A DNA stretch of 20,000 nucleotides, from the IMG/VR virus record IMGVR_UViG_3300030330_006853; one strand, written 5' to 3'. Below the pieces are notes generated by a model. The model saw only the letters and a program-made list of their open reading frames with translations, had not been told where the DNA came from and ran no database searches. This document shows positions 2,586 to 19,701 of the stretch, piece by piece. Made by a program: the position numbers and the translations under genes. The stretch is from an uncultured virus (IMG/VR IMGVR_UViG_3300030330_006853). Lineage: Duplodnaviria > Heunggongvirae > Uroviricota > Caudoviricetes. Numbering within the stretch: the stretch's first letter is position 1; each line of letters opens with the position of its first letter.

Positions 2586-3944
2586 CTAGTTAAATAATAC
2601 AGCATTATGAGTGTCTGTTAATAATTTTGAAAAAACTTTTGCATCTCTTAGACCAAGCGTAATAGAAGAAGAAGGTATGACGGGTATTCTTGAAAGCTTC
2701 TTTATTGTTGAGTCTGATAAGAATGTTTCTTCTTTTTTGAGTAGGCTTTTCAAAGATGAGAAATTAATTTTTCCAAATGCGATAAGAGACTTCATAGTTC
2801 TAAGGACGTTATCAATTTTTTCTGTCATTAAAACGTTGGAAGCTTCATCTTTTCTAGGAAGAATAATTCTGACAGTTCTTCCCGTCAGAGATTTAATTCT
2901 GCTATCTAGATATGCTAAATCATTCTCATTTTTTTCACGAGAATTTTTCAGTCGATCGACATGATATCTTACTGCATCTTTTTGTGATGGGTTGACTATT
3001 TTTATTTTTCCCATGCTAGCATGAAAATCATCAACGATCGGAAGGCTTTCTGGGTCAACTGATGATATGAGTTCACCCTTTAAACTTGAAATTACATCAC
3101 TTCCTGAGCATATAGCAATATCTACTAATTTATTAGGATTTGATTCTTCGATTGGGATTCCGATACACATAACATTAAGAACTCCTCTTTGATTATTCAG
3201 GACTATGGTAGAAATTACATCGTAAGAGAATCCTCTTGCACAAATAACTAGAGGGGCCTTTCTGTCCACGCAGTGATTCAGTATGTTATCAATCTCAGAA
3301 ACTTTTTCTATTAAGCCGTCAACAACAAGAACTTTGGCGTCTTTAAATTCCCATATATGTTTTTTCATAGAAGATAAAACATTAACATCAGGCGTGCACT
3401 GGAAATAATATCCGCTTGTTACATCGATCGCAGGCTGGTTTACTTCACTAAACTCTATAGCAACAGTTCCCTCCAGCCCTGCTTTCTTAATAGCTTCAAT
3501 TATAATGCTTTGCATTTGAGGATTGAAGTTCCACTTTAATATTTTTTTAAAGTCTTTGAGTTTTGCTCTTTCCGATGACTTGTGAAATATTTCAAAAAGC
3601 CTTAATACTTGTTCGTTAAAGTCAATTATCCTAAATTCACTTAGTGATGCCTGCATTAAATCTACAAGTATGTGAAAAAGGACTTCAGAAGAAATTGCAG
3701 ATTTCTTTTCGGCCTCGTAGCATGCTTCTCTTATCATTGAAAGTATCAAGTTTTCAAGCCTGGACTCGCCCTTCATTATCTTCAGGGCTGTCAATATAGA
3801 CCTGCTCACCAAGGGCGTATTGTCTACGCTGAAAATAAAACCTCTTTCATCTTTTTCAGACGAAATCTTTTCAATTTTTTGCAATGATAAAAGAAGAGCT
3901 TTTTTAATCTCTTCTCTTTTGTGGACAGTAATATTGTCTTTCAC
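2586..3944 (-). CDS. Divergent GroEL/Cpn60-like chaperonin lacking the GDGTTT motif
   Basis: Segments KAGLEGTVAIE, KVLVVDGLIEKVSEIDNIL, PLVICARGFSYDVISTIVLNNQRGVLNV and LVDIAICSGSDVIS align by eye with the GroEL intermediate and apical domains ([45 protein letters not shown]). Confidence 0.8.
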   Translation of the reverse strand: MKDNITVHKREEIKKALLLSLQKIEKISSEKDERGFIFSVDNTPLVSRSILTALKIMKGESRLENLILSMIREACYEAEKKSAISSEVLFHILVDLMQASLSEFRIIDFNEQVLRLFEIFHKSSERAKLKDFKKILKWNFNPQMQSIIIEAIKKAGLEGTVAIEFSEVNQPAIDVTSGYYFQCTPDVNVLSSMKKHIWEFKDAKVLVVDGLIEKVSEIDNILNHCVDRKAPLVICARGFSYDVISTIVLNNQRGVLNVMCIGIPIEESNPNKLVDIAICSGSDVISSLKGELISSVDPESLPIVDDFHASMGKIKIVNPSQKDAVRYHVDRLKNSREKNENDLAYLDSRIKSLTGRTVRIILPRKDEASNVLMTEKIDNVLRTMKSLIAFGKINFSSLKSLLKKEETFLSDSTIKKLSRIPVIPSSSITLGLRDAKVFSKLLTDTHNAVLFN

Positions 3945-3954
3945 CTAGAACGAC

Positions 3955-5886
3955 CTAGCCATCTCTCCAAAGATTATTAGCAGCAAACTTAATCACTTCT
4001 TCTGCAGAATCTTCATTGTATCCATAGTCATCAATAAGTGTAGACACCATATCATTATATTTTTTCTGCTGCTTGTTGTCTCTAGACTTTGATTTTGTAA
4101 CAATTCTTGACATATCTTTCACAGATGTCATAAGCTTATTTTCAATGGCTTCTTTGAGGGGCCCATAAGCCTTCCAATCAATCTTCTTTTTAGCGCGAAG
4201 AAGAGTGAACATGTAAGTAGTAACATCAGACCTAAACCCGTCTCTGGCTGAACCCGTAATCCCTATATTCTCTTCAATTGATTTCATGAAGTTTTCGTCA
4301 GGTTCCATCTCTTCTCTAGTCACTTTATCTTTTACTCTAGTCTTGTTGACGTAAGCTTCAGCATGATCAAGGTAGTTATCAAACAGGGTTTCTGCCTGCT
4401 CTTCGTATGCACTTACAAAAGCTTTGGTAATTTCCTTCTCCAAAATTCTCAAGTATTCTTCATGAAGAGTTTTCTGCAAGTATTGAAGATATCTTTCTCT
4501 TGCTTCCTCATCAATGATCTGCTCTTTTACTTGCTTAATCAGAGAGTCTCTGACGGAAATCGGAGTTACCATATTTCTCTCAGAGTCTGAAAGCGCTGAG
4601 TCGATCGCTTTGGTGATGAAGCGCGTTGAGATGCCGGTCATGCCTTCATCGCGGGATTCCTCACGAAGATCTTTGATGTCGACCTTCTTGACTCTTCCCT
4701 TTTCAATGATGTCCTCACCGTTGTAGATCTTCATCTTAACCAAAGGATCAACCTTACCAGAAGGTTTCAGGCGAGACATCACGGCGAACATTGATGCCAC
4801 CTCAAGTGTGTGTGGTGCGATGTGTGCATCAAAGTCAGACATCTTTAACATCTTCTGGTAAATCTTTACCTCTTCGTCAAGTTCTAGGCAGTACGGGACA
4901 TTAATCTTAACGATTCGGTCAAGGATTGCTTCATTTGTGTGTGTGGATTTAAATCGGTTCCATTCCGCTTCGTTACAGTGTGCAAGAATCACACCGTCAA
5001 AGTAAATCATAGCACCTTTACCAGGGGAGGGAACTGCTTTCTCCTGCGTTGCTGTGATCATTGTGTGAAGGAACTCGATCTCATTTTTAAAGACCTCCAC
5101 AAACTCAACGATACCTCTGTTACCAACATTAAAGGCCCCGTTTAAGGAAAGCACTCTGGGATCATCCTCGGGATACAGATCCAACTTAGAGATGTCCTCT
5201 GAGCCTATGAGGATTGAAGTGTCTTGAGTATTAGCATCTACAGGAGGAACGACACCTACACCCCGTCTTCCTCGAACTGAGAAAGATGATTGCTTGACTG
5301 GAAAATCTTCGTACTTACCGTCGAACTCTTCTAAGAGCCTATGGCGGCAAACTGGACAGAGATCTCCTTCAATCTTCACACCAAGCATTTCTTCAAATTG
5401 GGGTCGAAGAGATCGAGGCAGCAGATGAAGAGGTTCTTCTCTAATCGGGCAGCCCTCGAGATGATAAATGCTGTCTGCTCTTTCAAGCCCCTTTTTAATG
5501 TGCTCAATAAGCGCTGATTTTCCGGCGCCGACTGGGCCTAGCAAAAGAAGAACTTGTCTACTTTCCTCGCCTTTCATTGATGCAGATCTAAGGAATCTCA
5601 TTACCTTGGCAAGTGACCTCTCCATTCCAAAGAAGTGAGGTTTAAAGTAATTGTAGACTTTTATTTTCTCGCTATCGAAAAGTCGTCGACATCTTTCATC
5701 AGTTTCATCGAGGACTTCGATTCCTTCTGAAGTTAAAGACTCATATAGCCTTTTATGTGCAAGATTTGCAATCTTAGGATCTTCTTCTAAGACTTCTAAA
5801 TATTCAAGAAAAGTTCCCTCAAATGACTTGTCTTTCTTTTCAGCTCTCTGCTTGCTAATAATTTCAGCAAATTTTGATTTTGACAT
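3955..5886 (-). CDS. prkA: PrkA/YeaG family AAA+ ATPase / serine protein kinase
   Basis: 643 aa. Walker A GPVGAGKS, FFGME, CPIREEPLHL, NRGIVEFVEVFKN, NEAILDR and VPYCL are all typical of PrkA. Confidence 0.95.
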   Translation of the reverse strand: MSKSKFAEIISKQRAEKKDKSFEGTFLEYLEVLEEDPKIANLAHKRLYESLTSEGIEVLDETDERCRRLFDSEKIKVYNYFKPHFFGMERSLAKVMRFLRSASMKGEESRQVLLLLGPVGAGKSALIEHIKKGLERADSIYHLEGCPIREEPLHLLPRSLRPQFEEMLGVKIEGDLCPVCRHRLLEEFDGKYEDFPVKQSSFSVRGRRGVGVVPPVDANTQDTSILIGSEDISKLDLYPEDDPRVLSLNGAFNVGNRGIVEFVEVFKNEIEFLHTMITATQEKAVPSPGKGAMIYFDGVILAHCNEAEWNRFKSTHTNEAILDRIVKINVPYCLELDEEVKIYQKMLKMSDFDAHIAPHTLEVASMFAVMSRLKPSGKVDPLVKMKIYNGEDIIEKGRVKKVDIKDLREESRDEGMTGISTRFITKAIDSALSDSERNMVTPISVRDSLIKQVKEQIIDEEARERYLQYLQKTLHEEYLRILEKEITKAFVSAYEEQAETLFDNYLDHAEAYVNKTRVKDKVTREEMEPDENFMKSIEENIGITGSARDGFRSDVTTYMFTLLRAKKKIDWKAYGPLKEAIENKLMTSVKDMSRIVTKSKSRDNKQQKKYNDMVSTLIDDYGYNEDSAEEVIKFAANNLWRDG

Positions 5887-5932
5887 TCTTTATGCTCCAC
5901 ACGTTCAATAATACACAATAATATGTAGGAGT

Positions 5933-7240
5933 TTAAATCTCGAAAGGTTCGTCTTCTATGATTGTAAAGAACTTAAAGTCATCACCCCAGAGGTCTAGGA
6001 TGTGGTCACATACATTGTGTGCGTAATCAAGATCTAAATCTCTACCATCATGCTCATGTCGCAGAACTAGAGTGTGATCCTTCTGCATTTCTTCTATATA
6101 AATGTTTGGCAGTGAGTTAAGACCTACATTTTTTATAAGGTCTTCTCGAATCTGCTTCCACCCACCTTCGTCAGATATATCGTCGATTGTCCACTCTTTC
6201 TTTTTCTTTGAATAAGAGAAAAGATTAAGATCTTCGCAGATCTCGCGGTTAAGGTATGTCCTAATAAAAGATTCATCATTGTGTGATGTTCTAGCTATGA
6301 AGCACTCATCTAGACCCTTATTTTCTTCAATCCACTTAAAAATGGTAAAACCTAAGTGATATGGATTAATTCTTCCAACCATAGGCCTAAGAACTTGATT
6401 ATGAAACTTCAAAAAAGATAAGTGGAACTCTTGAGGAAGATCTAATTCTGACATGATTTTATAGTGCCAAAACGATGCCCAGCCTTCATTCATAATTTTT
6501 GTCATTGCTTGCGGCATAAAATACATCGACTCTTCTCGAACAATATTAACAATATCTCTTTCCCAGGAATCTAGATTCCTAGAATATTTTGCTATAAATC
6601 CTAAGACATCATAGTCTGGCTCTAAGGGTATTTTATTGACATTGAAGTCAAGTGGTAAATTCTCCGGCATGTAATTGGCAATATCAACATAATATTGCTT
6701 TATTTCATCGTGAGTCTTTCTTTTTATTCCGAATTCACGATAGTTGTGATATTTGAGAGCGTGACAGGCGTCAATAATCTTCTCTACAGACTCTACGCCG
6801 ATGTGTGTGTTATCAACATACTTCTTGATTCTCTTTGCCGCATTTCTAAATCTAGAAATTACATTTGCAGCATCTGTATGGCCAAACATTCGGTTGTTCT
6901 TAAAAAAGTCAGAGTGGCCTACACAATGTGCCATAATAAGAACCTGGAGAGGAAGAGGATTCTCAGACATTAAATATGATATCGAAGGATCACTATTGAT
7001 GATCATCTCATAGGGAAGACCCTCCATGCCGAGATTATACATGGTGTGTGTTCTCTCAAAAGATTTTCCATAAGACCAGTGCTGGTAGTGTGTCGGCATT
7101 CCAATGTATGACATGTAACCAATCATATCATGATAATCACATACCTCATAGTCAATCGGATACCAGTCAAGATTGTATTTCTTGGCTAGGCTAACAATTT
7201 TTTCGTCCCATTCTTGCAAGTCTTCAAAAGTCCATTGCAT
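5933..7240 (-). CDS. spoVR: SpoVR/YcgB family protein
   Basis: 435 aa with the SpoVR motifs GMPTHYQHWSYGK, YEMIINSDP, AHCVGHSDFFKNN, TKIMNEGWASFWH and NPYHLG. Confidence 0.95.
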   Translation of the reverse strand: MQWTFEDLQEWDEKIVSLAKKYNLDWYPIDYEVCDYHDMIGYMSYIGMPTHYQHWSYGKSFERTHTMYNLGMEGLPYEMIINSDPSISYLMSENPLPLQVLIMAHCVGHSDFFKNNRMFGHTDAANVISRFRNAAKRIKKYVDNTHIGVESVEKIIDACHALKYHNYREFGIKRKTHDEIKQYYVDIANYMPENLPLDFNVNKIPLEPDYDVLGFIAKYSRNLDSWERDIVNIVREESMYFMPQAMTKIMNEGWASFWHYKIMSELDLPQEFHLSFLKFHNQVLRPMVGRINPYHLGFTIFKWIEENKGLDECFIARTSHNDESFIRTYLNREICEDLNLFSYSKKKKEWTIDDISDEGGWKQIREDLIKNVGLNSLPNIYIEEMQKDHTLVLRHEHDGRDLDLDYAHNVCDHILDLWGDDFKFFTIIEDEPFEI

Positions 7241-8409
7241 TACTCTGATCTCCCTCCGAAAAGCTTTTTAAATGAAGGCCAAATCTCCTTTGAATTAATC
7301 ATCTTTAACGTCTTAAATTTCTTTCCTACCAGCGGTTGGTAAACATCCCACATTCTAGAGTTTCCATTTTGACGCCACTGAGATGATTCATTTGCAGGAT
7401 CAATTTCACAAAAAGCGTAGAGCTGTGAAATCTCTTTAAGTTTTTGCGAAACATTAAAAGCTTTTTCTTCATCCTCTGACCAGTTGTCTCCATCAGAGCA
7501 GTGAAAAGAATAAATGTTCCAATTACTAGGGTGATATCTCTTTTCTACTATTTCCAGAGTAAGATCAATGGCAGGGGAAATAAAAGTTCCGCCTGAAGGA
7601 GCTAAGCTAAAGAAATCGTTCTCGCTTACTTCTTTTGCTGTTGTTGTATGAGCAATGAATACAACTTCCACATTGTCGTACTTGTGCCTCAAGAATTGAT
7701 ATAGAAGAAAGAAAAAACTGCGCGCAATATACTTTTTCTCTGTGCTCATTGACCCAGAAATATCCATGATAAAGAATATTGCCGCCGATGATATTTCTGT
7801 CTCTTTTACTTTGAAATGCTTATATCGAAGGTCGTCATCATGAAAAGGAAATCTTTCCTCATCTTCAGGGTTATAAGTTCCTGCTTTCTGAGCCATTTTC
7901 TTTCGGCGGATCTTCTGCTTGAGAGTCTCTTTTTTCGAAAGGCGAGGACGAATTCCCTTGGGTCTAAAACCTTTTCTACGAAAAGTATCGGAGGACAGAA
8001 ACTTAAATTTCTTTTTATCCAGGTCAGGAAGCTCAAGATCGCTGAAAAGATATTCTGCGAGTTCCTCTAATGTAATCTCTACGTCATAGAACTCTTCACC
8101 TGGTTTATCACCTGGTTTGTTACCTGATTTGTTACCTTCGTTATCCTCAGCAATCTTTTGACCGCGGTGGATATCTTTGCCAGGAGCTGATCCTACTTTC
8201 TTGGAGTTGTCGCCGTAGATAAACTGGTATTCTTTAATGCCTTTGACAGGTATCCGAACTTTTTTCTTGCCATCTTGTCCAATAATAGACTCTTCAGCAA
8301 CTATATTTCTAATTCCTTCTTTTAAGGCTTTATCTATTTTTTGTTTGTGTCTAGATCGATCTGTAGCTGATCTGTCTGCTATGGATTTATGTTTTCGAAA
8401 AGTGCTCAT
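7240..8409 (-). CDS. yeaH: YeaH/YhbH (DUF444) vWA-domain protein
   Basis: 389 aa with the MIDAS-type motif MDISGSM, plus FIAHTT, GGTFIS, WNIY and SDGDNW. Its stop overlaps the spoVR start (TAATG). Confidence 0.93.
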   Translation of the reverse strand: MSTFRKHKSIADRSATDRSRHKQKIDKALKEGIRNIVAEESIIGQDGKKKVRIPVKGIKEYQFIYGDNSKKVGSAPGKDIHRGQKIAEDNEGNKSGNKPGDKPGEEFYDVEITLEELAEYLFSDLELPDLDKKKFKFLSSDTFRRKGFRPKGIRPRLSKKETLKQKIRRKKMAQKAGTYNPEDEERFPFHDDDLRYKHFKVKETEISSAAIFFIMDISGSMSTEKKYIARSFFFLLYQFLRHKYDNVEVVFIAHTTTAKEVSENDFFSLAPSGGTFISPAIDLTLEIVEKRYHPSNWNIYSFHCSDGDNWSEDEEKAFNVSQKLKEISQLYAFCEIDPANESSQWRQNGNSRMWDVYQPLVGKKFKTLKMINSKEIWPSFKKLFGGRSE

Positions 8410-9077: not shown

Positions 9078-9671
9078 TTAGTTTCCTCCTGTGTGAAAAT
9101 GATCTTCGTGATCATGTGAGTGAGCCTCATCGACAAAGCTGTTAGGGTCGATCTGAACTCCGCTCGCATCCGTGACTTCAAAGTGAAGATGAGGACCGGT
9201 GCTTCTTCCCGTTGAACCTACCTCTCCGATAAGCTCACCTTTCTCGATCCTGTCACCTCGCTTTACATAAATATTACTCAAGTGACAATACTTGTTAAAG
9301 ACTTCTTCGCTGACCTTCACTATGACATAGTGTCCACAACCCCGATACCCTTTTGAGGTCTTAACAATCCTTCCTGCTGCTAGTGCAGGGATTCCAGCTC
9401 CGTATCTTCCCGCGAAATCAATGCCCCGATGAAAACGAGTCCCGAAAGTAAAGGGATCGTTTCTCCAGCCCCAGTTAGAAGTCACGATATCGTAACGAAC
9501 TAAGCCCTTTGATTTAGCAATCTCGGACTTAACAATCGGAACGGGCTTTTTCTTGTATTTTTTGTTAAATTTATTGATCTGGGGAACAAAATTATGATTT
9601 GCATAGTCGATTCCATGAAATAGAAGGTAGAAAAAGCCCATCATTTTCATGTAAGCAGCTAATTTATTCAT
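9078..9671 (-). CDS. M23 family metallo-endopeptidase (peptidoglycan hydrolase)
   Basis: Zinc motifs HRGID (HxxxD) and GPHLHFE (HxH), plus YCHL and GSTGRSTG. N-terminal hydrophobic anchor and His-rich C-terminal tail. Confidence 0.93.
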   Translation of the reverse strand: MNKLAAYMKMMGFFYLLFHGIDYANHNFVPQINKFNKKYKKKPVPIVKSEIAKSKGLVRYDIVTSNWGWRNDPFTFGTRFHRGIDFAGRYGAGIPALAAGRIVKTSKGYRGCGHYVIVKVSEEVFNKYCHLSNIYVKRGDRIEKGELIGEVGSTGRSTGPHLHFEVTDASGVQIDPNSFVDEAHSHDHEDHFHTGGN

Positions 9672-10311: not shown

Positions 10312-11433
10312 TTACTCAAAGACTGCTAGCAGTTCACCTTCTCCGCCCGGAATATCATCTTCATCATATTCCTCTTCAGCGAAGATATCTTCTTCTGCGC
10401 TAGCTAAAGTTTCACTTGAAGATTGTGGCATATTTTTAGGTTTTACTAAAGGCTTGCTAGGTGTTTTGATATTCTCTGATAAGCCTTTAAATAACTCAAT
10501 TACTTTGTTGTAAGCATCATCTTCTGTCTTGACATCATCGCGTATGAATATCAAGTAAAGTGCATTACCCAGTCTCTTCTGTGCAAGCAGAGCATCGCTG
10601 TCAAAAGATTCCATGAAGGCGTCTAATGACTTTGTGACACCAAACAAGTCTTGCATAAAGTTAACGACACCTCCTGCATCCCATCCCGGTGCATTTTTCA
10701 TAGATAATCCGTAGTCATCAGCTACCTTTTCGCTCGCAAAAGGATTATCTTGCTCGGAAACTACTTTCTCTGCTCCGACAGCTGCATCTCCTGCAAGGCC
10801 AGGAGCAACAATCGACGCCCCTATACCTGCCCCCATTTGACGCTTAGTAAGTTTATAAGTTGCCCCTTTTGATATATTGAGAGCCTTTGCAACTTTACCT
10901 ACAGGAGGTGCAGCTTTAGTTGCTACTTGCACTGCACCAAACACACCAGGCGCAATCTTTCCAAAAAATGCTGCAGCAGGACCAAAAGCAATCCAGCTTA
11001 AGAAATAAATTGCACCCGTGGCATACTTCTTCAGTCTAAAAGCATCAAAAATATCTCTGACGGCTTCTTGGAAGTCACCCCTTCCTTGAATTGTTACCGT
11101 TCCGTCCTCGTCAGGCTCAGATTTCTCAGGTTTTGAGGCGATCTGCTTAAGCCTAGAAAATCCAGAATTAATAAGTTCTGCAATGTAGTATGCTCCTCGT
11201 CCTGCCATGTCCTTGCTATTAAATCCGCTTACCTGCCAAGTAGCAGTTGTCAGTGCATCTAAATCAGACATTACTTTTGAAGAAGCTTCACCGTTTCTAA
11301 TTTTATCTAAGTTATTAAAAACGTTGCTCTGTATGTTATTCCATGCTTGCTTTCTACCCTGTTCTTTCTTTTGCTCAGATATCATCTCTTGGATTACAGG
11401 TTTTAATGTCTTTATATCCATAATCTTTTTCAT
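10312..11433 (-). CDS. Motif-bearing Ala/Gly-rich protein with hydrophobic segments (putative virion-internal/ejected protein)
   Basis: N-terminus IKTLKPVIQEMISEQ, hydrophobic stretches GAIYFLSWIAFGPAAAFFG and GAGIGASIVAPGLAG, acidic C-terminus. Confidence 0.8.
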   Translation of the reverse strand: MKKIMDIKTLKPVIQEMISEQKKEQGRKQAWNNIQSNVFNNLDKIRNGEASSKVMSDLDALTTATWQVSGFNSKDMAGRGAYYIAELINSGFSRLKQIASKPEKSEPDEDGTVTIQGRGDFQEAVRDIFDAFRLKKYATGAIYFLSWIAFGPAAAFFGKIAPGVFGAVQVATKAAPPVGKVAKALNISKGATYKLTKRQMGAGIGASIVAPGLAGDAAVGAEKVVSEQDNPFASEKVADDYGLSMKNAPGWDAGGVVNFMQDLFGVTKSLDAFMESFDSDALLAQKRLGNALYLIFIRDDVKTEDDAYNKVIELFKGLSENIKTPSKPLVKPKNMPQSSSETLASAEEDIFAEEEYDEDDIPGGEGELLAVFE

Positions 11434-11441
11434 AATTTTTC

Positions 11442-12614
11442 CTACAAAACACTTTTAAGCTTAGACTGAGTGTCTTTAAGTTTAGCTCGCCAGTCAGGAT
11501 CACCTGATTTTCGATAAAGACTTCTAAGGGTTACAGGTGATATCTCATCATTACCTCTTATCTCAACAAAACTCCAAGAGTTTCCTCCTGGATCACTTAT
11601 GAATCTGGCAACTAGCTTTTCTGGTTTAACCTGACTTCCTTTGTACTTTGATATCACCACCTTGCCGCGATACTTGGAATCTTTTCCTGCTTTTCTCGAG
11701 GGCTTAGTAAGCGTATAAATGTTTCCAGGCTGATAAACCCCGACAGCCTTCAATTTACTTGTTATGTCGACAGCTTTTGCTTGACCTAAATTAACTTCTT
11801 CTTGGCCCATATTTGCGACATCAACTTCATCACTATCTGATGCTGAAAAATAAAGTGTTCCCGCCAGTGCACCCCCAATAACAAGAGTTCCTAGTGTTTT
11901 CACTAGCCACTGCGGGACAGACCAGCTTTCATCGTCAACTGCACCTGTAACCACTCTAGATGAAACATCAGCAACTGCATATGCTTTTCCAAGCCTTGTG
12001 GCATAAAGTCTACCCACTCCCGGGAGTTTTTCCAAAGCACCATCCAGCTGCTTGAATATTTCTATTACTTTGTTAGAGTCTCCTTTGGCTGCAGCCGCCT
12101 CTGCCTGACCTAAAAGTCCGGCAACGTCATCCATTCCTTGTGCAGCAACATCATCTGCAGATCGAACAGCAGCTTTTCCACCTTCTCGGGTAACTGTAAC
12201 AGTAATAGCTTCTCTTCCTCCTGCTGCCGGGAGTCTAATACTTGTTGCACCCTTATCAATTAAAACCTTGAGCTCGTCCATTCCGGAAGCCCCTAGAGCT
12301 TGTGCGCCTTTAGCTGTAGCTCTTCCTGTAGAGCTGCCGGTGCCTTTTCTAAGATTAGCTCTTTGTCTTGAAAGCCTCTGGTATCTTTTTCCTAACTCTC
12401 TTTCAGCAGCATCACTACTTTTTCTTAGTGCAGAAACAGACTTACCAGTTTTACCAATATCATCTGCTAGTTTAGTTGCCGCTGCAGCAGCATCATCTGC
12501 TCCCAGCTTTCCAAGATCATCAGCTAGTCTTAAAATTGTTCCAAGTCTCTCCGCTAGAATTGAAGAGAGTTCTTCTATGATGATAGGCTTAAGATTTTTC
12601 GGATCTAATGACAA
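11442..12614 (-). CDS. Motif-bearing Ala/Gly-rich protein with hydrophobic segment
   Basis: N-terminus LDPKNLKPIIIEELSSILAE, ADD repeats and segment LGTLVIGGALAGTLYFS. TTG start with GGGAG SD. Confidence 0.8.
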   Translation of the reverse strand: MSLDPKNLKPIIIEELSSILAERLGTILRLADDLGKLGADDAAAAATKLADDIGKTGKSVSALRKSSDAAERELGKRYQRLSRQRANLRKGTGSSTGRATAKGAQALGASGMDELKVLIDKGATSIRLPAAGGREAITVTVTREGGKAAVRSADDVAAQGMDDVAGLLGQAEAAAAKGDSNKVIEIFKQLDGALEKLPGVGRLYATRLGKAYAVADVSSRVVTGAVDDESWSVPQWLVKTLGTLVIGGALAGTLYFSASDSDEVDVANMGQEEVNLGQAKAVDITSKLKAVGVYQPGNIYTLTKPSRKAGKDSKYRGKVVISKYKGSQVKPEKLVARFISDPGGNSWSFVEIRGNDEISPVTLRSLYRKSGDPDWRAKLKDTQSKLKSVL

Positions 12615-12632
12615 CTTAATCTCCCGGTATGA

Positions 12633-13106
12633 TTAGGCATCATCGCCTGGTAAATCAATCTGAGCAACGTCAGAAGCTCTAACCACATTGCCTTGAGCCA
12701 GAGCGCTGATAGCATTTTTAACTTCACTATATACGGCATCAACACTGTCGTGAAGGTCCGAAAAAAGATCTGTATCGCTATCTTCTAAAGAGTCTTGATT
12801 AAGATTGTATTCTTGTCTAGTAAGCTCGTCTAAGTCATCTCGAGCCGCGGCCAGATAAGCTAGAACATCTGCTAGCTTCTTGACTTTAATAGAATTATCA
12901 TTTTGCTCTTTTAGAGGTTTTCTTTTAGGTGGTTTTTCCTCATCTGCTTTGCGATCAGCAGGAACATATTCAAAGGGATCTACAAGATCATCACCACCGG
13001 CCCAAGCATCTTCAACAGCCCCAACTTCTGCGGGATCTTTGACATCGGAAATTCTTCCAAGTTCTTCACGAATTACTTTTCTAAGTTGACTAAGTGTTAA
13101 ATACAT
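12633..13106 (-). CDS. Motif-bearing acidic protein
   Basis: N-terminus MYLTLSQLRKVIREEL, strong GAGGAGG SD, and ATAGTTA upstream (13135-13141). Confidence 0.85.
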   Translation of the reverse strand: MYLTLSQLRKVIREELGRISDVKDPAEVGAVEDAWAGGDDLVDPFEYVPADRKADEEKPPKRKPLKEQNDNSIKVKKLADVLAYLAAARDDLDELTRQEYNLNQDSLEDSDTDLFSDLHDSVDAVYSEVKNAISALAQGNVVRASDVAQIDLPGDDA

Positions 13107-13134
13107 AAAGGCCTCCTCAAAGACACTCTCAGTA

Positions 13135-13141
13135 TAACTAT
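13135..13141 (-). promoter_or_regulatory. Putative late-promoter motif (ATAGTTA)
   Basis: Intergenic RATANTTA copy upstream of 13106. Confidence 0.55.
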
Positions 13142-13168
13142 TCTACAGAAAAGTAAAGTGTGATAATG

Positions 13169-13321
13169 TTAACCTACTTTGCCGAGAACCTTTTTGAGAA
13201 GCTGGATCACACTGTCCTCTAAGCCAGAGTTTTCAATAGCTTTAGATGCTGCAGCCTTAAGTCTACCAGCAGTGCTTTCTTTTTCCTGTCTATCAGGTGT
13301 GCCTGGAGTGGGTTTACTCAT
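13169..13321 (-). CDS. Small hypothetical protein (50 aa), absent from the ORF track
   Basis: Hand translation: MSKPTPGTPDRQEKESTAGRLKAAASKAIENSGLEDSVIQLLKKVLGKVG*. The start overlaps the upstream stop (TAATG). Confidence 0.7.
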   Translation of the reverse strand: MSKPTPGTPDRQEKESTAGRLKAAASKAIENSGLEDSVIQLLKKVLGKVG

Positions 13322-14559
13322 TAGTAGGTCCTGTCGACCAGTTCCATCGCTGCTGTAGTTCTCGGCCCAAGGCGTCGGATTCTACCCTTAAAGTCTGCTC
13401 TCCAACCCTGGGGACCTTGAAAATAGCGTGCCATGTGCGAACCATCGGCTCTTCTTTTGAAAACTTCTCTTTTCTCTGTGTCAAAGAAGTATTTGATATC
13501 TTTGAAAGATGGGTCAGTGGTGTTATCGTAAACTTTTTCTCTAATGAAGATATCTGTGATATCAACTTCGTCGCCACCACCGACACCAGGATCTTCGTCC
13601 TCACGTGGAAGTGTCATCGGAGGAGGAGGAAGGTCTTCAACGCTCATGTTGAGATCTTCATCAATATCCTCATCTGTAAGAACAGGCTCGATTTCACCCG
13701 CTGTTGCTCTACCAATTAATCCAGCTGCTATCATACCTGCGATTGCAAGAGCAGTCCAGTGTCCCGCGATCCCAGGAACTCTAAAAATAACATTTCTAGG
13801 ATATCGAACAAATCTAGCAAGAAACTCTTTAGCTCTTGCGGTAGGCGTTCCAAACTTTGCCACTGCTGCTAAAGCTTCTTTGGTTGTTGCGCCATCTGCA
13901 GTCTTTAGTGCTTTAAGAAGATCAGGAGTATTATGAACTCTCATAGTCCTTACACCGATTCCTCTTCCAGTAGCATCTTTAACGACTTTTTCTGCAACGC
14001 TTTTATTGAGGCGCATGAAAGAAGTTGTTCCGGGAAGGGTAAAAAATGTCTGGTCTCCAATCTGGAAAATTCTAGGACCTGGGTGAGGAGATCTACCTAG
14101 AGCGTGTGCAGCGCTAAGTGCATCTGCCATTTTCTTTCTTACTTTTGCACCGCCGGCCCCTTTTTCCATTACCTTCGAATATAGAAGCTTTGCATCGTCT
14201 GCTGTCAAAAGCCCTTTTTGAACACCTAGTTCAATCTGTGAAACGACAGTAGCTTTTGATGATGAAAATCCCCTAGCGCCCTGTCTTGCAGCGACGTTAA
14301 CTAGATCATCACCCACAATTTTAAGAACATCATCCGCTGTCTGAGCAGTTCTTGCGCTGCCAGCTGTTGCCGCTTTAGCAGCGACCTGTGCAGTGTCATC
14401 AGCAGCCTTTGCTGCAGTTTTTGCACCTCGTCCAAAAAGGGAGGCTATTCTTGACAGAATTTGCTCGTCCATTGCGGCTAAGCTCTTTGATTCATTTGTC
14501 ATTTGTCGAATTTCTTCTTGAATGACTTTTCTAAGTGCGATTTCTAATTGATTACTCAT
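13321..14559 (-). CDS. Motif-bearing Ala/Gly-rich protein with hydrophobic segment
   Basis: N-terminus IALRKVIQEEIRQMTNE, an AKAADD-type region, and segment WTALAIAGMIAAGLIG followed by an acidic/Pro linker. Confidence 0.85.
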   Translation of the reverse strand: MSNQLEIALRKVIQEEIRQMTNESKSLAAMDEQILSRIASLFGRGAKTAAKAADDTAQVAAKAATAGSARTAQTADDVLKIVGDDLVNVAARQGARGFSSSKATVVSQIELGVQKGLLTADDAKLLYSKVMEKGAGGAKVRKKMADALSAAHALGRSPHPGPRIFQIGDQTFFTLPGTTSFMRLNKSVAEKVVKDATGRGIGVRTMRVHNTPDLLKALKTADGATTKEALAAVAKFGTPTARAKEFLARFVRYPRNVIFRVPGIAGHWTALAIAGMIAAGLIGRATAGEIEPVLTDEDIDEDLNMSVEDLPPPPMTLPREDEDPGVGGGDEVDITDIFIREKVYDNTTDPSFKDIKYFFDTEKREVFKRRADGSHMARYFQGPQGWRADFKGRIRRLGPRTTAAMELVDRTY

Positions 14560-14580
14560 TAATAAATTCCTATTTAAAGC

Positions 14581-15786
14581 TTAAAATTCTTCTTCTTTGA
14601 ATCGACCTTGAGACATTTGCTCCAGGCCAACTATCATAATGTCAAGAAGCTCCTTCGCGCTTGCATCTGCAAAATAACCGCCTTTAAGTTTCTCTTGAGC
14701 GGCTTTCATCGGGTTCTTCTTATATTCAGACGCGAAATTATTTCTAAATTTGTTGTAAAGCTTTTGTTGAGTTTTTTGGTCCTTTATTCCTTCAAAAGCC
14801 CTCTTCATTGCTTCGATGCCGTCCTGGACATGAGACCGGTTTGGCGAGCCAAGGACTCCTAAATGCAACCTAAGACTTTGCCCAACTTCACGCTGCATTT
14901 TGCGTGCACGACTAGCAATTTGAGAGTCAGTAATTTTTTCACCCTCTGCACCTTCGCCTTCTTTTTTCTTACTATCTTTTTGCTTGCCTCTTTGATTTAT
15001 TAAAAATTTCATAAGGGAGCCAAAAGCTACCGTGTCGTGCTTCTTTAAGTGATTCTCAAGTCCTTTAAATGCGCTGGAAGGGATTGAGTTTATAAAGTTT
15101 TTTAGATGAACGTCATCCGAAGTATTTGCCGCTTCATCTCCTAGCTCAAAGTCAATGCTTAGCTTCCCTTTTAAGACTTTGGCAATCTCTCCAGCAACAT
15201 CTGGACCAATTTGCTCATTAAGGCTTCTAATGGACTCTCTCACCATCTGTCTTATATCAGACTCCGATATTGCTGAATCAACCTTTTTTTCTCTAAAAAT
15301 ATCGAGCATTTCCTCATAGGATTTAGGGTTAGATTGAAAAGCATTTTTCATCGCCACAACAACTTTAGCTTCAACGGAATCTTTGCCCAGGCTGGCTAGA
15401 TTAGAAGGATCATCAAAACCTGAAGCTGCTTTTTCCTTTTCATCGTCACCAGAAACTTCTTTTTCAGCAGCTTTAAAAACATCATCATCGGAACCTACCT
15501 TGTAAAGGCTTTGCAAAGTATCCATAATGCGACGATACGCTTTAGGAAGCTTAGTGGCTGATATTTTTCTCTTACCTACGATTCTTTTAAACTTATCAGG
15601 AGCTCCGGAAACTGTGAACTCTTTAGCTTTTACATCTAAGTCGTATGTGAATCCTTGCCCGCGGTCCACGCGGATGGAAACCTTTCCGCCCTCTTCAACT
15701 TCTTCTTTGGATGCTTTTTGCTCGCTTAGAATACTGGAGGCAGGGATAAGGTTTTCAAGCTCTTTGGCGGAAATTTTAAATTTCAT
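14581..15786 (-). CDS. Charged hypothetical protein with divergent N-terminal and internal motif copies
   Basis: 401 aa. N-terminus MKFKISAKELENLI and internal ISESDIRQMVRESIRSLNEQ. Confidence 0.85.
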   Translation of the reverse strand: MKFKISAKELENLIPASSILSEQKASKEEVEEGGKVSIRVDRGQGFTYDLDVKAKEFTVSGAPDKFKRIVGKRKISATKLPKAYRRIMDTLQSLYKVGSDDDVFKAAEKEVSGDDEKEKAASGFDDPSNLASLGKDSVEAKVVVAMKNAFQSNPKSYEEMLDIFREKKVDSAISESDIRQMVRESIRSLNEQIGPDVAGEIAKVLKGKLSIDFELGDEAANTSDDVHLKNFINSIPSSAFKGLENHLKKHDTVAFGSLMKFLINQRGKQKDSKKKEGEGAEGEKITDSQIASRARKMQREVGQSLRLHLGVLGSPNRSHVQDGIEAMKRAFEGIKDQKTQQKLYNKFRNNFASEYKKNPMKAAQEKLKGGYFADASAKELLDIMIVGLEQMSQGRFKEEEF

Positions 15787-15793
15787 TTATGAG

Positions 15794-15859
15794 TTCTCCC
15801 GGCGACGCAAAAATGAATTACATTCTACGTTCAGACAGTAAATATTTCATCCGGAAGAA
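15794..15859 (-). promoter_or_regulatory. SD-sequestering inverted repeat enclosing a putative late promoter
   Basis: In the mRNA, UUCUUCCGG (15859-15851) pairs with CCGGGAGAA (15802-15794; contains the GGGAG SD) over 9 bp with one G-U. ATATTTA (15839-15845) lies between the arms. Confidence 0.55.
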
Positions 15860-15872
15860 AAAATAAAATCTA

Positions 15873-16103
15873 TTAAGAAGCTTCTTGCTTAGCTTTCATC
15901 TCATCCAAAGACGACTTCATATCATCAAGTCGAGAATTAATGCTTTCCTCCAGGGCTTTGATCGCTGTGAGGATCTCTTCTTTGGCTCCACCAAGTTCAG
16001 CCTCAACGTGTGCCTTGTCAGCTAGCTCCTGCTCTTGAATAACAGGGCGATGATTCAGCTCTCGACGAATAAATTCTCTTAATTGTCTTTGTGATAGCTT
16101 CAT
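15873..16103 (-). CDS. Motif-bearing small coiled-coil protein
   Basis: N-terminus MKLSQRQLREFIRRELN; ATGA overlap with the cglF-like gene. Confidence 0.85.
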   Translation of the reverse strand: MKLSQRQLREFIRRELNHRPVIQEQELADKAHVEAELGGAKEEILTAIKALEESINSRLDDMKSSLDEMKAKQEAS

Positions 16104-16357
16104 ATGTTATCTGCGCTTTCTGATAACTTATCGCGAAAATTAGCGCGAACTTTGATAAAATTTTTGAATTTAATATCTTTGCGAACACCAACGTATGCAC
16201 CTTCGGGCTTAGTAAGCTCACCCTTAATTGTGACATCGGAAAAATCAATTGATGTCTTCTTTTTGTAGGACACAGTGTCTTCTTGCTGGACCACATCGCC
16301 GGCATAGACATGAGATGCCCATAAAAGCGCTATTAAAAGTGCAAGAATTTTATACAT
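16100..16357 (-). CDS. cglF: Adventurous gliding motility protein CglF/GltF homolog (secreted)
   Basis: Signal peptide MYKILALLIALLWASHVYA, then YKKKTSIDFSDVTIKGELTKPEGAY...IKVRANFRDKLSESADNI. This closely matches my recollection of myxobacterial CglF (KKTVIDFxDVxVEGELTKPEGSY...LIKVRxNF...SVDNL). Start taken at the ATG at 16357 (AGGGA SD); the track uses TTG at 16372. Confidence 0.8.
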   Translation of the reverse strand: MYKILALLIALLWASHVYAGDVVQQEDTVSYKKKTSIDFSDVTIKGELTKPEGAYVGVRKDIKFKNFIKVRANFRDKLSESADNI

Positions 16358-16408
16358 GATATCCCTAGACAAATTAATCCCCGCGAAACACGAATGTCGC
16401 GCATTGAT

Positions 16409-16415
16409 TAACTAT
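16409..16415 (-). promoter_or_regulatory. Putative late-promoter motif (ATAGTTA)
   Basis: Intergenic RATANTTA copy upstream of the cglF-like gene, followed by a small hairpin with a UUCG loop. Confidence 0.55.
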
Positions 16416-16464
16416 CCAAGAAAAAGTAGAAGTGTCTTAAAATTTAACGTCGTGATCCTGGCGG

Positions 16465-16818
16465 TTACGCCATACCCACACCGGTGTCACGATATCTATT
16501 TGGCCCGCTGGAGACGCCCCGAAGCCTTGACACAAAGTCCGAAAGTTGAGCATCGCTAGCATCATCAAGCAAGTCTAGTGCTTGACGAACAGGTGATCCG
16601 ACCGGTAGGTCGGCTCGATTTCGAATGGCGCGGAGGACAGAATCGTGAAGGACGTCGGAATCCACCGCGGAGCGGGTCACGGCGCGGGCTTGAACAACAG
16701 GGGCCATTGGATCGGCATCTTGATCATTGCCGGAAGGCAAAACGTAATCGGTGGTGGGGCTTATGGCAACTAGTTCTTCTCGAACAATCTTGCGCAGATC
16801 TTTAAGCTTGATCTGCAT
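16465..16818 (-). CDS. Motif-bearing hypothetical protein
   Basis: Start reassigned to the ATG at 16818, giving MQIKLKDLRKIVREEL; AAGGTG SD. Confidence 0.8.
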   Translation of the reverse strand: MQIKLKDLRKIVREELVAISPTTDYVLPSGNDQDADPMAPVVQARAVTRSAVDSDVLHDSVLRAIRNRADLPVGSPVRQALDLLDDASDAQLSDFVSRLRGVSSGPNRYRDTGVGMA

Positions 16819-17125
16819 CGCTTTCACCTTCGGTGTTCTCGAGCATGCTCACGGCACGAGACTTGGTGCCACTATTTGCAACTTTCATAGCCTTAGAAAG
16901 GTCACCTGCGACGCATTGATCATCATGATCGGAATCTAAAAGATGCACGACAACATCTGTCGGAACTCCTGCCAATGTAGCTTGACGTGCCATGTCTAAA
17001 ACATGTTTGCTACGTCTACCTTCGGCGTCGGTTTGAAAAACAACAGGAGCGCGGTCGGCTTCTTTAAGGGCTGTTTGAAGCTCCTCGGCAATGATCTCGC
17101 GGAGGCGATTTTTAGAAATACGCAT
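16802..17125 (-). CDS. Motif-bearing hypothetical protein
   Basis: Start reassigned to the ATG at 17125, giving MRISKNRLREIIAEEL; AGGA SD just after the upstream stop. Confidence 0.8.
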   Translation of the reverse strand: MRISKNRLREIIAEELQTALKEADRAPVVFQTDAEGRRSKHVLDMARQATLAGVPTDVVVHLLDSDHDDQCVAGDLSKAMKVANSGTKSRAVSMLENTEGESDADQA

Positions 17126-17133
17126 GTTAAATC

Positions 17134-17907
17134 CTAGAGGCCGGCGATTTGCATCCAACGGGAAACCGCAGGATTAGAAGGTGCAGCAGACTCATTAAGG
17201 TTTTCAGCTTCAACAGATTCCTTTACCTTGAGACCTTGAGTAAGCTTATCAGAAATGTGCTTCAGCATTGCTACTTTCTCTTCAGCATCGATTTCCTCAC
17301 CTCTAGCAAATTTATCTGTTGCCTTTTGGCCGGCGGTCTCGTCAATCATTTCTTCTTCCATGCTGCTGTAAGAGCCTTCGTCCGAAGGAGGGTGTGCAGA
17401 TTCTTCGTATCCGTACGTCATTTCATCCATCGGGTCTTCTTCCATTCTCACTTTTCCTCCACCGCAGTGGCTCTCGTCGGTTTCTTCTTCGGAAAGTTCG
17501 GCTGGAAGTTCTTCTTCATGCATGTGACGGCGATGGTCATGTGCGCGATCATCTTGCATTTCCAGGTTGTGGATGTGAGCGTTAAGAGCGTCTCTGATAT
17601 CGCGCAAGTGGTGAATATCCATGCGGTCGTGCATCATTTCTCTAGCAAAGCTTTCTTCATCCATCATATCGCCGCCGTGGTCACCACCGTGGCCTTCACT
17701 CATGTCGACATCACCTTCTTCGTAAACATCCATTTCTGACATTTTGTAACCCTCTTCGAAAAGTTGGGCTTCTTCCTGAATGATGGCGCGAAGCGTTTCA
17801 ATATCGAGGCTTACAGCCTCTTCCTCGAGGCGAGTTGCCCCCTCGTTTTCGATTTTTTGGGCCTCGGCCAAAATTATAGCTCTAAGTTGATCAGCTGTCA
17901 GTTCCAT
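17134..17907 (-). CDS. Highly acidic Glu/Met/His-rich motif-bearing protein (scaffold/core-like)
   Basis: Start reassigned to the ATG at 17907 (GGAG SD), giving MELTADQLRAIILAEAQ. Second motif copy LDIETLRAIIQEEAQ; ends RWMQIAGL. Confidence 0.85.
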   Translation of the reverse strand: MELTADQLRAIILAEAQKIENEGATRLEEEAVSLDIETLRAIIQEEAQLFEEGYKMSEMDVYEEGDVDMSEGHGGDHGGDMMDEESFAREMMHDRMDIHHLRDIRDALNAHIHNLEMQDDRAHDHRRHMHEEELPAELSEEETDESHCGGGKVRMEEDPMDEMTYGYEESAHPPSDEGSYSSMEEEMIDETAGQKATDKFARGEEIDAEEKVAMLKHISDKLTQGLKVKESVEAENLNESAAPSNPAVSRWMQIAGL

Positions 17908-17945
17908 GAATGGTCTCCGTGCGCGCAATATGCGCTTTTGTTCTA

Positions 17946-17952
17946 TACATAT
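17946..17952 (-). promoter_or_regulatory. Variant putative late-promoter motif (ATATGTA)
   Basis: One mismatch to RATANTTA, upstream of the 17907 start. Confidence 0.4.
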
Positions 17953-18146
17953 TTCGTTTCTTAACAAACTTACTGCTCAAAATCCCTTTGGAGATCCCAA
18001 AGATTTAGTCAAATCTTATGATGATCTCTCCGGATCTTTTGAAAATGGTATAATTTTTGAGTGAAATTTTAAATAGCTAATTTTGTGAAGTTCTTAATCG
18101 ACCCATTGTCCGAGCTAGATCAATAACGAGAAAACACAAGCAAAAG

Positions 18147-18518
18147 TCAAGTCTTCCAGTAGAACTTTTTCCATTGGTGGGCCGGGCGAGTCTCAAGATA
18201 TCCCTCGTCCTCATCGTGTGCGTAGGCTTCTCTCTCAAAACAGATCATGCGATACGACAGTTGCGCAGAGGAGCCGGAGAACAGGTGCCGGAGCCAGTCC
18301 AACAGGTAGATCACGTAGAAACCCAAGACCCAGAGCTCTCTTTGCTGGACGATATGGATGCGCTCGTGACGCAGCAGCGTCGGGCTCTCGTAGCGCGGGT
18401 TCACAATGATGAAGGGCCACAGGGTGATCGCAGCCACGGGGATAAACCACGACATAAGGCGCGTTAGTATCCCTGAACGGATGATATAGCCTGAGAATGG
18501 TGGGTTAGGCGTCGGCAT
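18147..18518 (-). CDS. HExxH (zincin-like) small membrane-associated protein
   Basis: AITLWPFI...LLRHERIHIVQQ...FEREAY gives an HExxH plus a downstream Glu, with two hydrophobic segments. Confidence 0.75.
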   Translation of the reverse strand: MPTPNPPFSGYIIRSGILTRLMSWFIPVAAITLWPFIIVNPRYESPTLLRHERIHIVQQRELWVLGFYVIYLLDWLRHLFSGSSAQLSYRMICFEREAYAHDEDEGYLETRPAHQWKKFYWKT

Positions 18519-18551
18519 ATGCGATATTAGACCTTCCGGCTCGCTAGTAGC

Positions 18552-19019
18552 CTAGTCTTCCTCGCCGTCGAATCCCATAGCAGCCATTTTGTGATCGAGG
18601 TGCCCGTGGACGGCGTCCATGCTGTCCGCCATCGTAGCGACCTTGGACTGGACCCATTCGGGTAGTTCGTCTTGATCGTCTAAGCGATCGTAGAGGGATT
18701 GAGCAAATTTCGCGATGCGAAAGAGTTGAGAGCGCGCCATGCGGGCAGCGCCGCCTCCGCCGTAGACCGCGTGATCGTGCTTGTCGGCAGGCAGTTCGCT
18801 GTCGTCAACCTCGTAGTCAACTGAGAAGTCAGCAACGTGCTCCCCCTCGTTTAGCTCAGACGTAGTAGGCGCATCAGAAGCCTCGCCAAGTTCACGACGA
18901 TAACGTGCAAGCTCCGCCAAAACCATCTCTTGAATATCTGCATGGCTTAGCGTCGGAGGAAACGCAGACTTCATCTCCTCGGAGATAATGCTCTTGATTT
19001 TTTTCATTGATATTTTCAT
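18552..19019 (-). CDS. Motif-bearing protein with a phage-type helical C-terminal domain
   Basis: N-terminus MKISMKKIKSIISEEMK and internal LSHADIQEMVLAEL. The C-terminal MARSQLFRIAKFAQSLYD...LPEWVQSKVA resembles a domain I recall from large-phage hypothetical proteins. Confidence 0.85.
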   Translation of the reverse strand: MKISMKKIKSIISEEMKSAFPPTLSHADIQEMVLAELARYRRELGEASDAPTTSELNEGEHVADFSVDYEVDDSELPADKHDHAVYGGGGAARMARSQLFRIAKFAQSLYDRLDDQDELPEWVQSKVATMADSMDAVHGHLDHKMAAMGFDGEED

Positions 19020-19606
19020 GATTCACCTTCTTCGTCGAAAGCTACCATCTCTTCGGGAGAAAGCTGACCCCTTACTAGCGGCTGCATAATCTCAATCTCT
19101 GCATCTGGGACGACATACTCATTATCTTTTGTGTATAAGTTTAAGTCGACTATGAAACGCCTCTTACCTGAGTCGTGCGAGCGATCGTCGGCATTTTCCA
19201 TGCCTAGTAGTTTCCAGCGATCATGTCCGCCAATGCTCATGCTTTGGACGCCGCCTGCACCTAGATCCATGTCATAGGGTAGAATGTTGAGCGGATCGTC
19301 ACTGCGCAAATAAGGGTTATTATCGCGGTCAACGGGCACCCGCGTTGTTGCTGAGGGTTTTCGACCCACCAGCCTGAGTGTTGTCGCGTCGTTCGTCCAC
19401 CCCTTACCAATTTCGGAGTTTGTAGCTCCGACCCTGATTCCCATCACGTCACCCCTGAGAAATTTGTCCATTACATCTGGGTGGTTCATGAGTATTCCTG
19501 TGCCGTCATGAACAACGTCTGTTTTGATAGCGTCTGAAGGCGCTGGGTATTTTCGGGATAGTTCTTCGCGAATAATCTCTCTAAGTTTTCTAGCTGTAAT
19601 CTTCAT
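19016..19606 (-). CDS. Motif-bearing hypothetical protein
   Basis: Start reassigned to the ATG at 19606, giving MKITARKLREIIREEL. ATGA overlaps at both ends. Confidence 0.85.
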   Translation of the reverse strand: MKITARKLREIIREELSRKYPAPSDAIKTDVVHDGTGILMNHPDVMDKFLRGDVMGIRVGATNSEIGKGWTNDATTLRLVGRKPSATTRVPVDRDNNPYLRSDDPLNILPYDMDLGAGGVQSMSIGGHDRWKLLGMENADDRSHDSGKRRFIVDLNLYTKDNEYVVPDAEIEIMQPLVRGQLSPEEMVAFDEEGES

Positions 19607-19701
19607 GCGCAGCACCCGCAATCTGTGCAGCTGCAGGCTTTGCAGCAGCAGCAACAATATTCGCTAAATAAGTTAGCTAATCTACGTAGTATTTTTCTCA
19701 T
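19603..19701 (-). CDS. Cys-rich 32-aa peptide, metallothionein-like; absent from the ORF track
   Basis: Hand translation: MRKILRRLANLFSEYCCCCCKACSCTDCGCCA*, with 10 Cys in the last 17 residues. ATGA overlaps with both the upstream stop (19698-19701) and the downstream start (19603-19606). Confidence 0.75.
   Translation of the reverse strand: MRKILRRLANLFSEYCCCCCKACSCTDCGCCA

Follow-up and report, generated by a model that had tools for sequence, protein, structure and literature searches.

A probable NfsF ortholog encoded by contractile-tailed phages of putative marine myxobacterial hosts

Within a 20,000-nucleotide stretch of DNA from an uncultured virus, here called the window, we identify a gene for an 85-residue protein (16,100 to 16,357, minus strand) that profile match, BLAST and phylogenetic tree place in the NfsF clade of the GltF/NfsF family. 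As far as can be judged from sequence, the protein is very probably an ortholog of the sporulation-type subunit NfsF and not of the gliding subunit CglF/GltF, which a first-pass annotation of the same DNA had proposed. Capture of a host gene by a phage is in itself ordinary; the captured part, a linker of a sporulation-type motor complex that is kept by many marine phages, is unusual, being an auxiliary gene whose product is a single structural component of a trans-envelope machine driven by protons, and coming from the sporulation-type rather than the gliding paralog.

NfsA-H of Myxococcus xanthus are described as paralogs of GltA-H; when the cell sporulates, the AglRQS motor moves from Glt to Nfs and powers the latter, which wraps the Exo polymer to form the coat (PMC3858216, PMC12288465). 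NfsF (MXAN_3376) belongs to the nfsA-H set encoding the Agl-Nfs spore-coat machine (PMC2875238, PMC3858216), and its gene has a transcription start of its own (PMC11980068); GltF is the same protein as CglF (MXAN_4868; PMC3169522, PMC11761067). The AlphaFold model of GltF, a prediction, is mostly disordered, with a strand in the TonB-like domain of GltG and a C-terminal helix in GltC (PMC11761067). In our literature search, which covered mostly openly available main texts, GltF or NfsF was nowhere described as encoded by a phage.

The gene, its protein family and its paralog

The open reading frame begins with ATG, ends with TGA and contains the core motif quoted in the first-pass annotation, whose call of a genuine 85-residue gene is thereby confirmed. 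A ribosome-binding-site-like AGGGA (16,362 to 16,366, minus strand) lies 4 nt before the ATG, and the TGA shares 4 nt with the ATG of the next gene, an ORF of 76 residues (15,873 to 16,103, minus strand) with an LRxxIxEE-type N-terminus that is also the neighbor in close relatives; given this overlap, translational coupling of the two is likely. Residues 1-19 (16,301 to 16,357, minus strand) are predicted to form a type I (Sec/SPI) signal peptide: our own heuristic, used in place of SignalP, detects a hydrophobic stretch with V-Y-A ending at residue 19 and no lipobox, in agreement with the signal peptide claimed earlier, and the alignment reveals this segment as variable among the phage copies. 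By the same heuristic, the general traits of the GltF/NfsF family, namely a type I signal peptide, no lipobox and a length of 85-97 residues, are found in 47/47 phage copies, and the family core D-F-x-D-x-x-I-x-G-E/D-L-x-K-P-x-G ... I-x-x-R-x-x-F is present in the protein from the window.

The NCBIfam profile NF033764 (gliding_CglF) matches residues 4-85 significantly (E = 4.8e-22), with a score of 77.8 bits that falls under its curated cut-off of 90 bits because the protein is, on our assignment, the other paralog, NfsF. Annotation by the best HMM match would thus wrongly point to gliding. Searches of Pfam and PHROG with the phage protein returned no match, nor was there any among 50,697 GenBank phage records. 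The best-conserved parts of the protein are residues 32-49 (16,211 to 16,264, minus strand), a strand-like motif which, by offset from the C-terminus, may be the counterpart of the GltF segment in the GltG TonB-like domain, and the C-terminal residues 71-85 (16,103 to 16,147, minus strand), which by the same measure may correspond to the GltF helix predicted in the GltC crevice. AlphaFold2 predicts the mature phage chain alone to be unfolded, at low confidence (pLDDT 54.6), as has been reported for GltF alone (PMC11761067). Complex prediction of the mature chain with the C-terminal domain of a host NfsG (alignments A3, A2) gave 0.30 against a mark of 0.32, a score that we count neither for nor against such an interaction.

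To which paralog the protein belongs can be read from genomes encoding both. Profile searches recovered two main F copies in each Myxococcus genome. In M. xanthus AM003 the first is GltF (89 aa; 144.6 bits against NF033764), which precedes a 640-aa GltG, an arrangement that agrees with Table 1 of PMC3169522. The second (94 aa; 67.1 bits) lies in a contiguous A-H cluster and was recognized as NfsF by the product sizes of that cluster, with 512, 1202, 94 and 680 aa matching NfsC (512), NfsD (1202), NfsF (94) and NfsG (682; PMC2875238 Table 3). The phage core shares 31/57 residues with M. xanthus NfsF and 26/57 with M. xanthus GltF. Four marine genomes (G001-G004) likewise encode two F copies each, the closer of which is recovered by BLAST with the phage protein at E = 4e-43 to 5e-35 (69-81% identity over ~75 aa), against E = 4e-8 to 3e-7 (29-39%) for the other, GltF; in the two nearest genomes (G001 and G002) 51/57 core residues are identical to those of the phage. 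The closer copy sits in a barrel-barrel-C-D-E-F-G-H cluster, which is the contiguous nfs-type A-H order. In a D-subunit phylogeny (26 rows, 1016 columns, computed by a quick method and carrying a long-branch warning) the clusters with the closer F copy join NfsD (17 rows, SH-aLRT 100) and the second clusters join GltD (8 rows, 98), and reciprocal BLAST agrees with this assignment save for two rows, the D of L011 and the G of L200, both judged on single-HSP scores.

The F subunits themselves give a concordant picture. Their tree, built from 41 rows and 64 columns only and leaving out six distant paralogs, two divergent phage copies (L007 and L008) and many near-duplicates, joins 12 phage and 5 marine host copies in one branch (100/100) that is nested in NfsF (96/88), with GltF as a separate clade (99/97). 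This phylogeny with host copies, which the first-pass annotation had named as a check, accordingly speaks against its CglF label: the family assignment stood, and the paralog did not. Phage and host NfsF copies have the lineage marks S36, G57, V58, F67, R75 and I85 in common. Patterns based on NfsF found 6 viral loci, and two pattern sets based on GltF found none (0/53 and 0/150 candidate stretches). That the protein might nonetheless be CglF/GltF and act directly on the gliding complex draws on the NF033764 match, on its 26/57 identity to M. xanthus GltF, on an AU test in which a grouping of the phage copies with all GltF on one side of a branch is not rejected (p-AU 0.27), and on conceivable cross-talk between the paralogous complexes. 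We consider it very unlikely in view of the score under the CglF cut-off, the identity of 29-39% to host GltF against 69-81% to host NfsF, the rejection of a grouping with the hosts' own GltF (p-AU 0.005), and the finding of Luciano et al. that paralogous clusters cannot substitute for the glt genes (PMC3169522). Monophyly of the phage copies is neither supported nor rejected (p 0.22).

With NfsF rather than CglF/GltF as the encoded subunit, the earlier proposals of direct control of gliding and of Cgl-type stimulation by outer-membrane exchange lose their basis. CglF mutants are reportedly stimulatable, as Pathak and Wall are said to have found in 2012, and on that account the phage protein had been imagined as passing to neighboring cells. 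Such stimulation is described for CglF and not for NfsF, a lipobox is absent from 47/47 phage copies, and outer-membrane-exchange transfer depends on type II signals (PMC4488436), which together make the idea highly improbable.

Phage genomes, probable host and residence of the gene

The contig containing the window (G000) is a linear IMG/VR virus record of 133,826 bp, rated 21% complete by CheckV, with nearly all genes on one strand. It encodes a major head protein, portal, TerL, head protease, sheath, tube and baseplate proteins, the gene set of a T4-like contractile-tailed phage, and the earlier description of the DNA as a phage genome is correct. Its best capsid match (~51%) is to the uncultured LR756508, with no record reaching 80% coverage, and it appears to be without a close cultured relative. 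Since the CheckV size estimates for close relatives conflict (~640 kb for G000, ~335 kb for the record of L001) and Mar_Mega_1 is missing from the PrkA matches and from the capsid matches listed, we claim neither a phage family nor a genome size. A tblastn search of G000 and 46 further phage loci with 17 host Glt/Nfs/Agl partner proteins gave 0/17 matches, NF033768 was found in 0/5 viral records, and a complete Agl-Nfs locus, with nfsA-E, G and H on the same replicon, is absent from the phage fragments. The earlier remark that no other glt genes accompany the gene thus holds for this contig; because all these records are fragments and most of the phage genome is absent from them, nfsF stands alone only within the DNA examined. 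Elsewhere on the contig, ~23 kb of sugar-modification genes (G000:82841-105984, minus strand) code for glycosyltransferases, NeuB, a cytidylyltransferase and a dehydroquinate-synthase-like protein, and adjoin a gene for a 1733-aa collagen-repeat protein.

A protein search yielded 121 matching clusters at 90% identity, and a profile search 1,432 clusters at 50% identity, the latter without gene context. We collected 6 loci from IMG/VR (by alignment), the best 80 of 225 from GTDB and the best 80 of 269 from metagenomes. Their gene contexts are bimodal: machine genes adjoin the F gene in 79/80 GTDB and 41/80 metagenome loci, and the remaining 39 of the best 80 metagenome loci are without machine genes, have a GC content of 0.43-0.51 and match phage genes; L084, with a GC content of 0.73 and no machine neighbor, was provisionally counted as cellular. 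At least 46 phage loci besides that of the window result; with it they fall into 23 clusters at 95% nucleotide identity, apart from two divergent copies. A survey of other phages, also envisaged in the first-pass annotation, therefore recovers many carriers of the family, with 0 viral copies in the GltF clade. The divergent copies (L007:9875-10180 and L008:9941-10192; 35-40% identity) lie near an amidase gene and groEL in a second, distant phage lineage, and were set with neither paralog. Some cellular clusters contain a second, tandem F-family gene (L045:9114, L062:8195, L168:524, L182:549).

The nearest cellular relatives of the phage NfsF, among the best 80 of 225 GTDB matches, are the marine Myxococcota metagenome-assembled genomes G001-G004. 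Their class is represented by six genomes, five of which match the phage protein, and we regard this uncultured six-species marine class as the likely host group, with good confidence. Of the two host phyla suggested earlier, Myxococcota is retained; no Bdellovibrionota genome is named in the titles of the same 80 matches. The phage tmRNA, just left of the window (G000:113528-113846, minus strand), has a tag resembling those of three host genomes, a weak hint. Neither PrkA nor Hc1 of the phage is matched in the incomplete assemblies G001-G004, so that the host assignment rests on nfsF and the tmRNA tag. As far as these incomplete assemblies reach, the hosts have one short OPX gene per genome, located outside any exoABCD-type operon, and ExoC matches are weak (3/5 genomes, 20-22%), which makes a spore-coat role of their Nfs cluster conjectural; a 2026 preprint describes exo, nfs and spore genes as complete mainly in Myxococcaceae (10.64898/2026.07.10.737566).

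Several further features of the host genomes deserve mention. Host NfsG, at ~1350-1390 aa (L009:5140-9198, L011:5316-9497), is twice as long as that of M. xanthus; its N-terminal region is long and unannotated, and there was no FHA match. A third cluster (L231:12140-19900, L233:647-5563, L234:12101-19901) brings together TPR genes, genes for an AglRQS-like motor and a GltG-like gene, and adjoins the single OPX gene and genes resembling those of type II secretion. ORFs of 1620-1655 aa and zinc-ribbon-like ORFs in the glt cluster of the hosts, unnamed by NCBIfam at E = 1e-10, are presumably gltI and gltJ.

Phage nfsF is under strong purifying selection: the median dN/dS is 0.059 and the maximum 0.28 over 250 unsaturated pairs (dS > 0.2) of 496 among 32 distinct phage cores, 234 pairs being saturated. 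The copy in the window keeps every invariant residue, and its four differences from all three distinct host cores fall in variable columns. Its GC3 of 0.35 equals the phage median of 0.35, against 0.57-0.80 in the host loci L009-L013, which indicates long residence in the phage. The gene was captured from, or shares common descent with, one marine class. A neutral passenger or an assembly artefact is barely credible, being contradicted by the dN/dS of 0.06, by a GC3 ameliorated to the phage level, by the same flanks on independent contigs and by the bimodal separation of phage and cell contexts.

The upstream motif and the gene neighborhood

The stretch ATAGTTAA (16,408 to 16,415, minus strand), 58 nt before the nfsF ATG, is a copy of a phage-wide intergenic ATANTTA motif and a likely late promoter. 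Among the intergenic word classes of G000, ATANTTA shows the strongest enrichment: 19/52 of its coding-strand matches are intergenic against 1.7 expected, and it occurs in 17/40 intergenic segments against a shuffle mean of 3.8 and a maximum of 10. It precedes several structural genes, from which its late timing is deduced; the putative late promoter of the first-pass annotation thus finds statistical backing in the enrichment, with "late" resting on the position of these genes. A copy stands at the same place before nfsF in 9 close-relative loci, and within 120 nt upstream of it in 18/46 phage loci; in most loci without it, the gap to the preceding gene is <10 nt. For the canonical T4 late motif, G000 shows no enrichment (0/3 intergenic). 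In one RNA run a single 169-nt contig of depth 2 corresponds to 16,023 to 16,186; it was itself found with that stretch, and we do not count it as expression.

The neighbors in the window named here are likewise on the minus strand. These include genes for a Hc1 histone-like protein (691 to 885), a nucleotidyltransferase (887 to 1,678) and a diverged GroEL-like protein (2,586 to 3,944), a complete trio of YhbH (DUF444), SpoVR and PrkA identified by domain match (3,955 to 8,409), and, in the same array as nfsF, an M23 peptidase gene also identified by domain match (9,078 to 9,671). Thermus phages and a number of huge phages have counterparts of the phage PrkA at 30-35%. Unannotated ORFs in a long series (10,312 to 19,657), seen in related loci too, start with an L-R/K-x-x-I-x-E-E-type motif; such N-termini are also common in other phage loci, and by analogy we take them to be a possible head-targeting signal. 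In 33/46 phage loci nfsF is followed by an ORF of 90-96 aa without known function. One group of phage loci encodes a secreted protein that combines a VWA domain with MopE-type repeats (L004:3059-4321); in M. xanthus, VWA adhesins serve the gliding machine.

M23 genes near nfsF support a role in the envelope or wall. Directly upstream of it, most related phages encode a protein of 740-790 aa that has M23 domains and, N-terminally, a part without annotation (e.g. L120:695-2983, L128:3679-5961, L004:6856-9120). It could be supposed that NfsF is an accessory of lysis, loosening the link between inner and outer membrane as the phage M23 peptidases cut peptidoglycan, given that 34/46 other phage loci (20/23 clusters) have an M23 gene whose end is no more than 1.2 kb upstream of nfsF, and that in L004, L123 and L007 the first or second gene upstream codes for a PG-binding protein or an amidase. 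We hold this improbable: the adjacent M23 gene is missing from G000 and its closest relatives (3/23 clusters), the M23 gene of G000 lying 6.4 kb downstream, common synteny may reflect descent only, and the large M23 protein has by eye no obvious signal peptide.

Possible functions and comparison with known systems

We tentatively propose that the phage NfsF is made late, exported and joins the Nfs-type machine of the host as a working linker that keeps it assembled or on. Late synthesis, suggested by the upstream motif, and Sec export to the periplasm, suggested by the signal heuristic, are together probable. Once exported, the protein may slot into the Nfs-type machine of its marine Myxococcota host, in a linker role transferred from the AlphaFold model of the paralog GltF. 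A small subunit that is unfolded when free and has its own promoter could become dose-limiting once host transcription fails, by the logic of cyanophage psbA. The machine would then stay assembled or be switched on, and the surface or wall of the infected cell might be remodeled together with the phage M23 peptidases. Glt draws on the same AglRQS motor as Nfs, so that an increase in Nfs could, indirectly, bring gliding to a halt as well.

The faithful conservation of the protein fits the opposite action equally well, as a bridging subunit in excess inhibits with its sequence unchanged. Surplus phage NfsF would in that case saturate NfsG and NfsC separately and uncouple the motor from the outer-membrane barrels NfsA/B/H; the jam could close a putative receptor to superinfection or prevent the adsorption of progeny to cell debris, as happens when T5 Llp blocks FhuA. 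The earlier idea of a blocked receptor survives here, transferred from the gliding complex to the Nfs-type machine. The late-type motif upstream of nfsF, the presence of only one machine part in the phage and the beta-barrels of the host cluster, potential receptors, are all compatible with such a jam. Nevertheless, no interface is lost and no accelerated change is seen in the phage protein, and a decoy would gain by dropping one binding end, whereas neither end varies across 23 distinct phage cores; we thus regard the jam as rather unlikely, and slightly favor a working supplement over a jammer.

A bolder version of the working-linker reading, which we consider unlikely, is that these phages push the host to a spore-like, non-gliding and hardened state, the infected cell becoming a protected virion factory. 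Phage NfsF would switch on the Nfs conveyor and draw the shared Agl motor from gliding, the M23 peptidases would reshape the wall, and the phage PrkA-YhbH-SpoVR proteins might support dormancy. Whichever reading applies, nfsF offers a host handle for widespread large marine phages without a cultured relative, and places the Nfs cluster of small-genome marine myxobacteria under viral pressure. It also raises the questions of whether the dose of the F subunit controls Nfs assembly or the switch of the motor between Glt and Nfs, and whether excess linker jams the machine.

Among known systems, the phage protein resembles M. xanthus NfsF as its ortholog by the F tree, by the D-subunit tree and product sizes of the nearest clusters, by 31/57 core residues, and by its signal peptide and invariant residues. 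It differs in being encoded alone behind a late-type motif, in having its signal region replaced, and in that its probable hosts are without a clear exo operon. With M. xanthus GltF/CglF it shares the protein family, the predicted strand-plus-helix layout of a linker and the unfolded state when alone; it is distinguished from it as the other paralog, by its sub-cut-off score, by the separate clade (99/97) and by the distinct GltF that the hosts keep in their second cluster. Like T5 Llp, it would be a small exported protein, as predicted, aimed at a TonB-like energized outer-membrane complex; unlike Llp, which is a phage-specific lipoprotein, it copies a host subunit and has a predicted type I signal. 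Like cyanophage psbA it is one part taken from a host, conserved faithfully and provided by the phage. The same can be said of the viral spoVR, spoVS and spoVG genes of marine viromes (PMC8940887), with which the phage of the window has a further likeness in also encoding prkA, yhbH and spoVR. Unlike those auxiliary genes, which specify enzymes or regulators, phage nfsF would provide a structural linker of a proton-driven trans-envelope machine.
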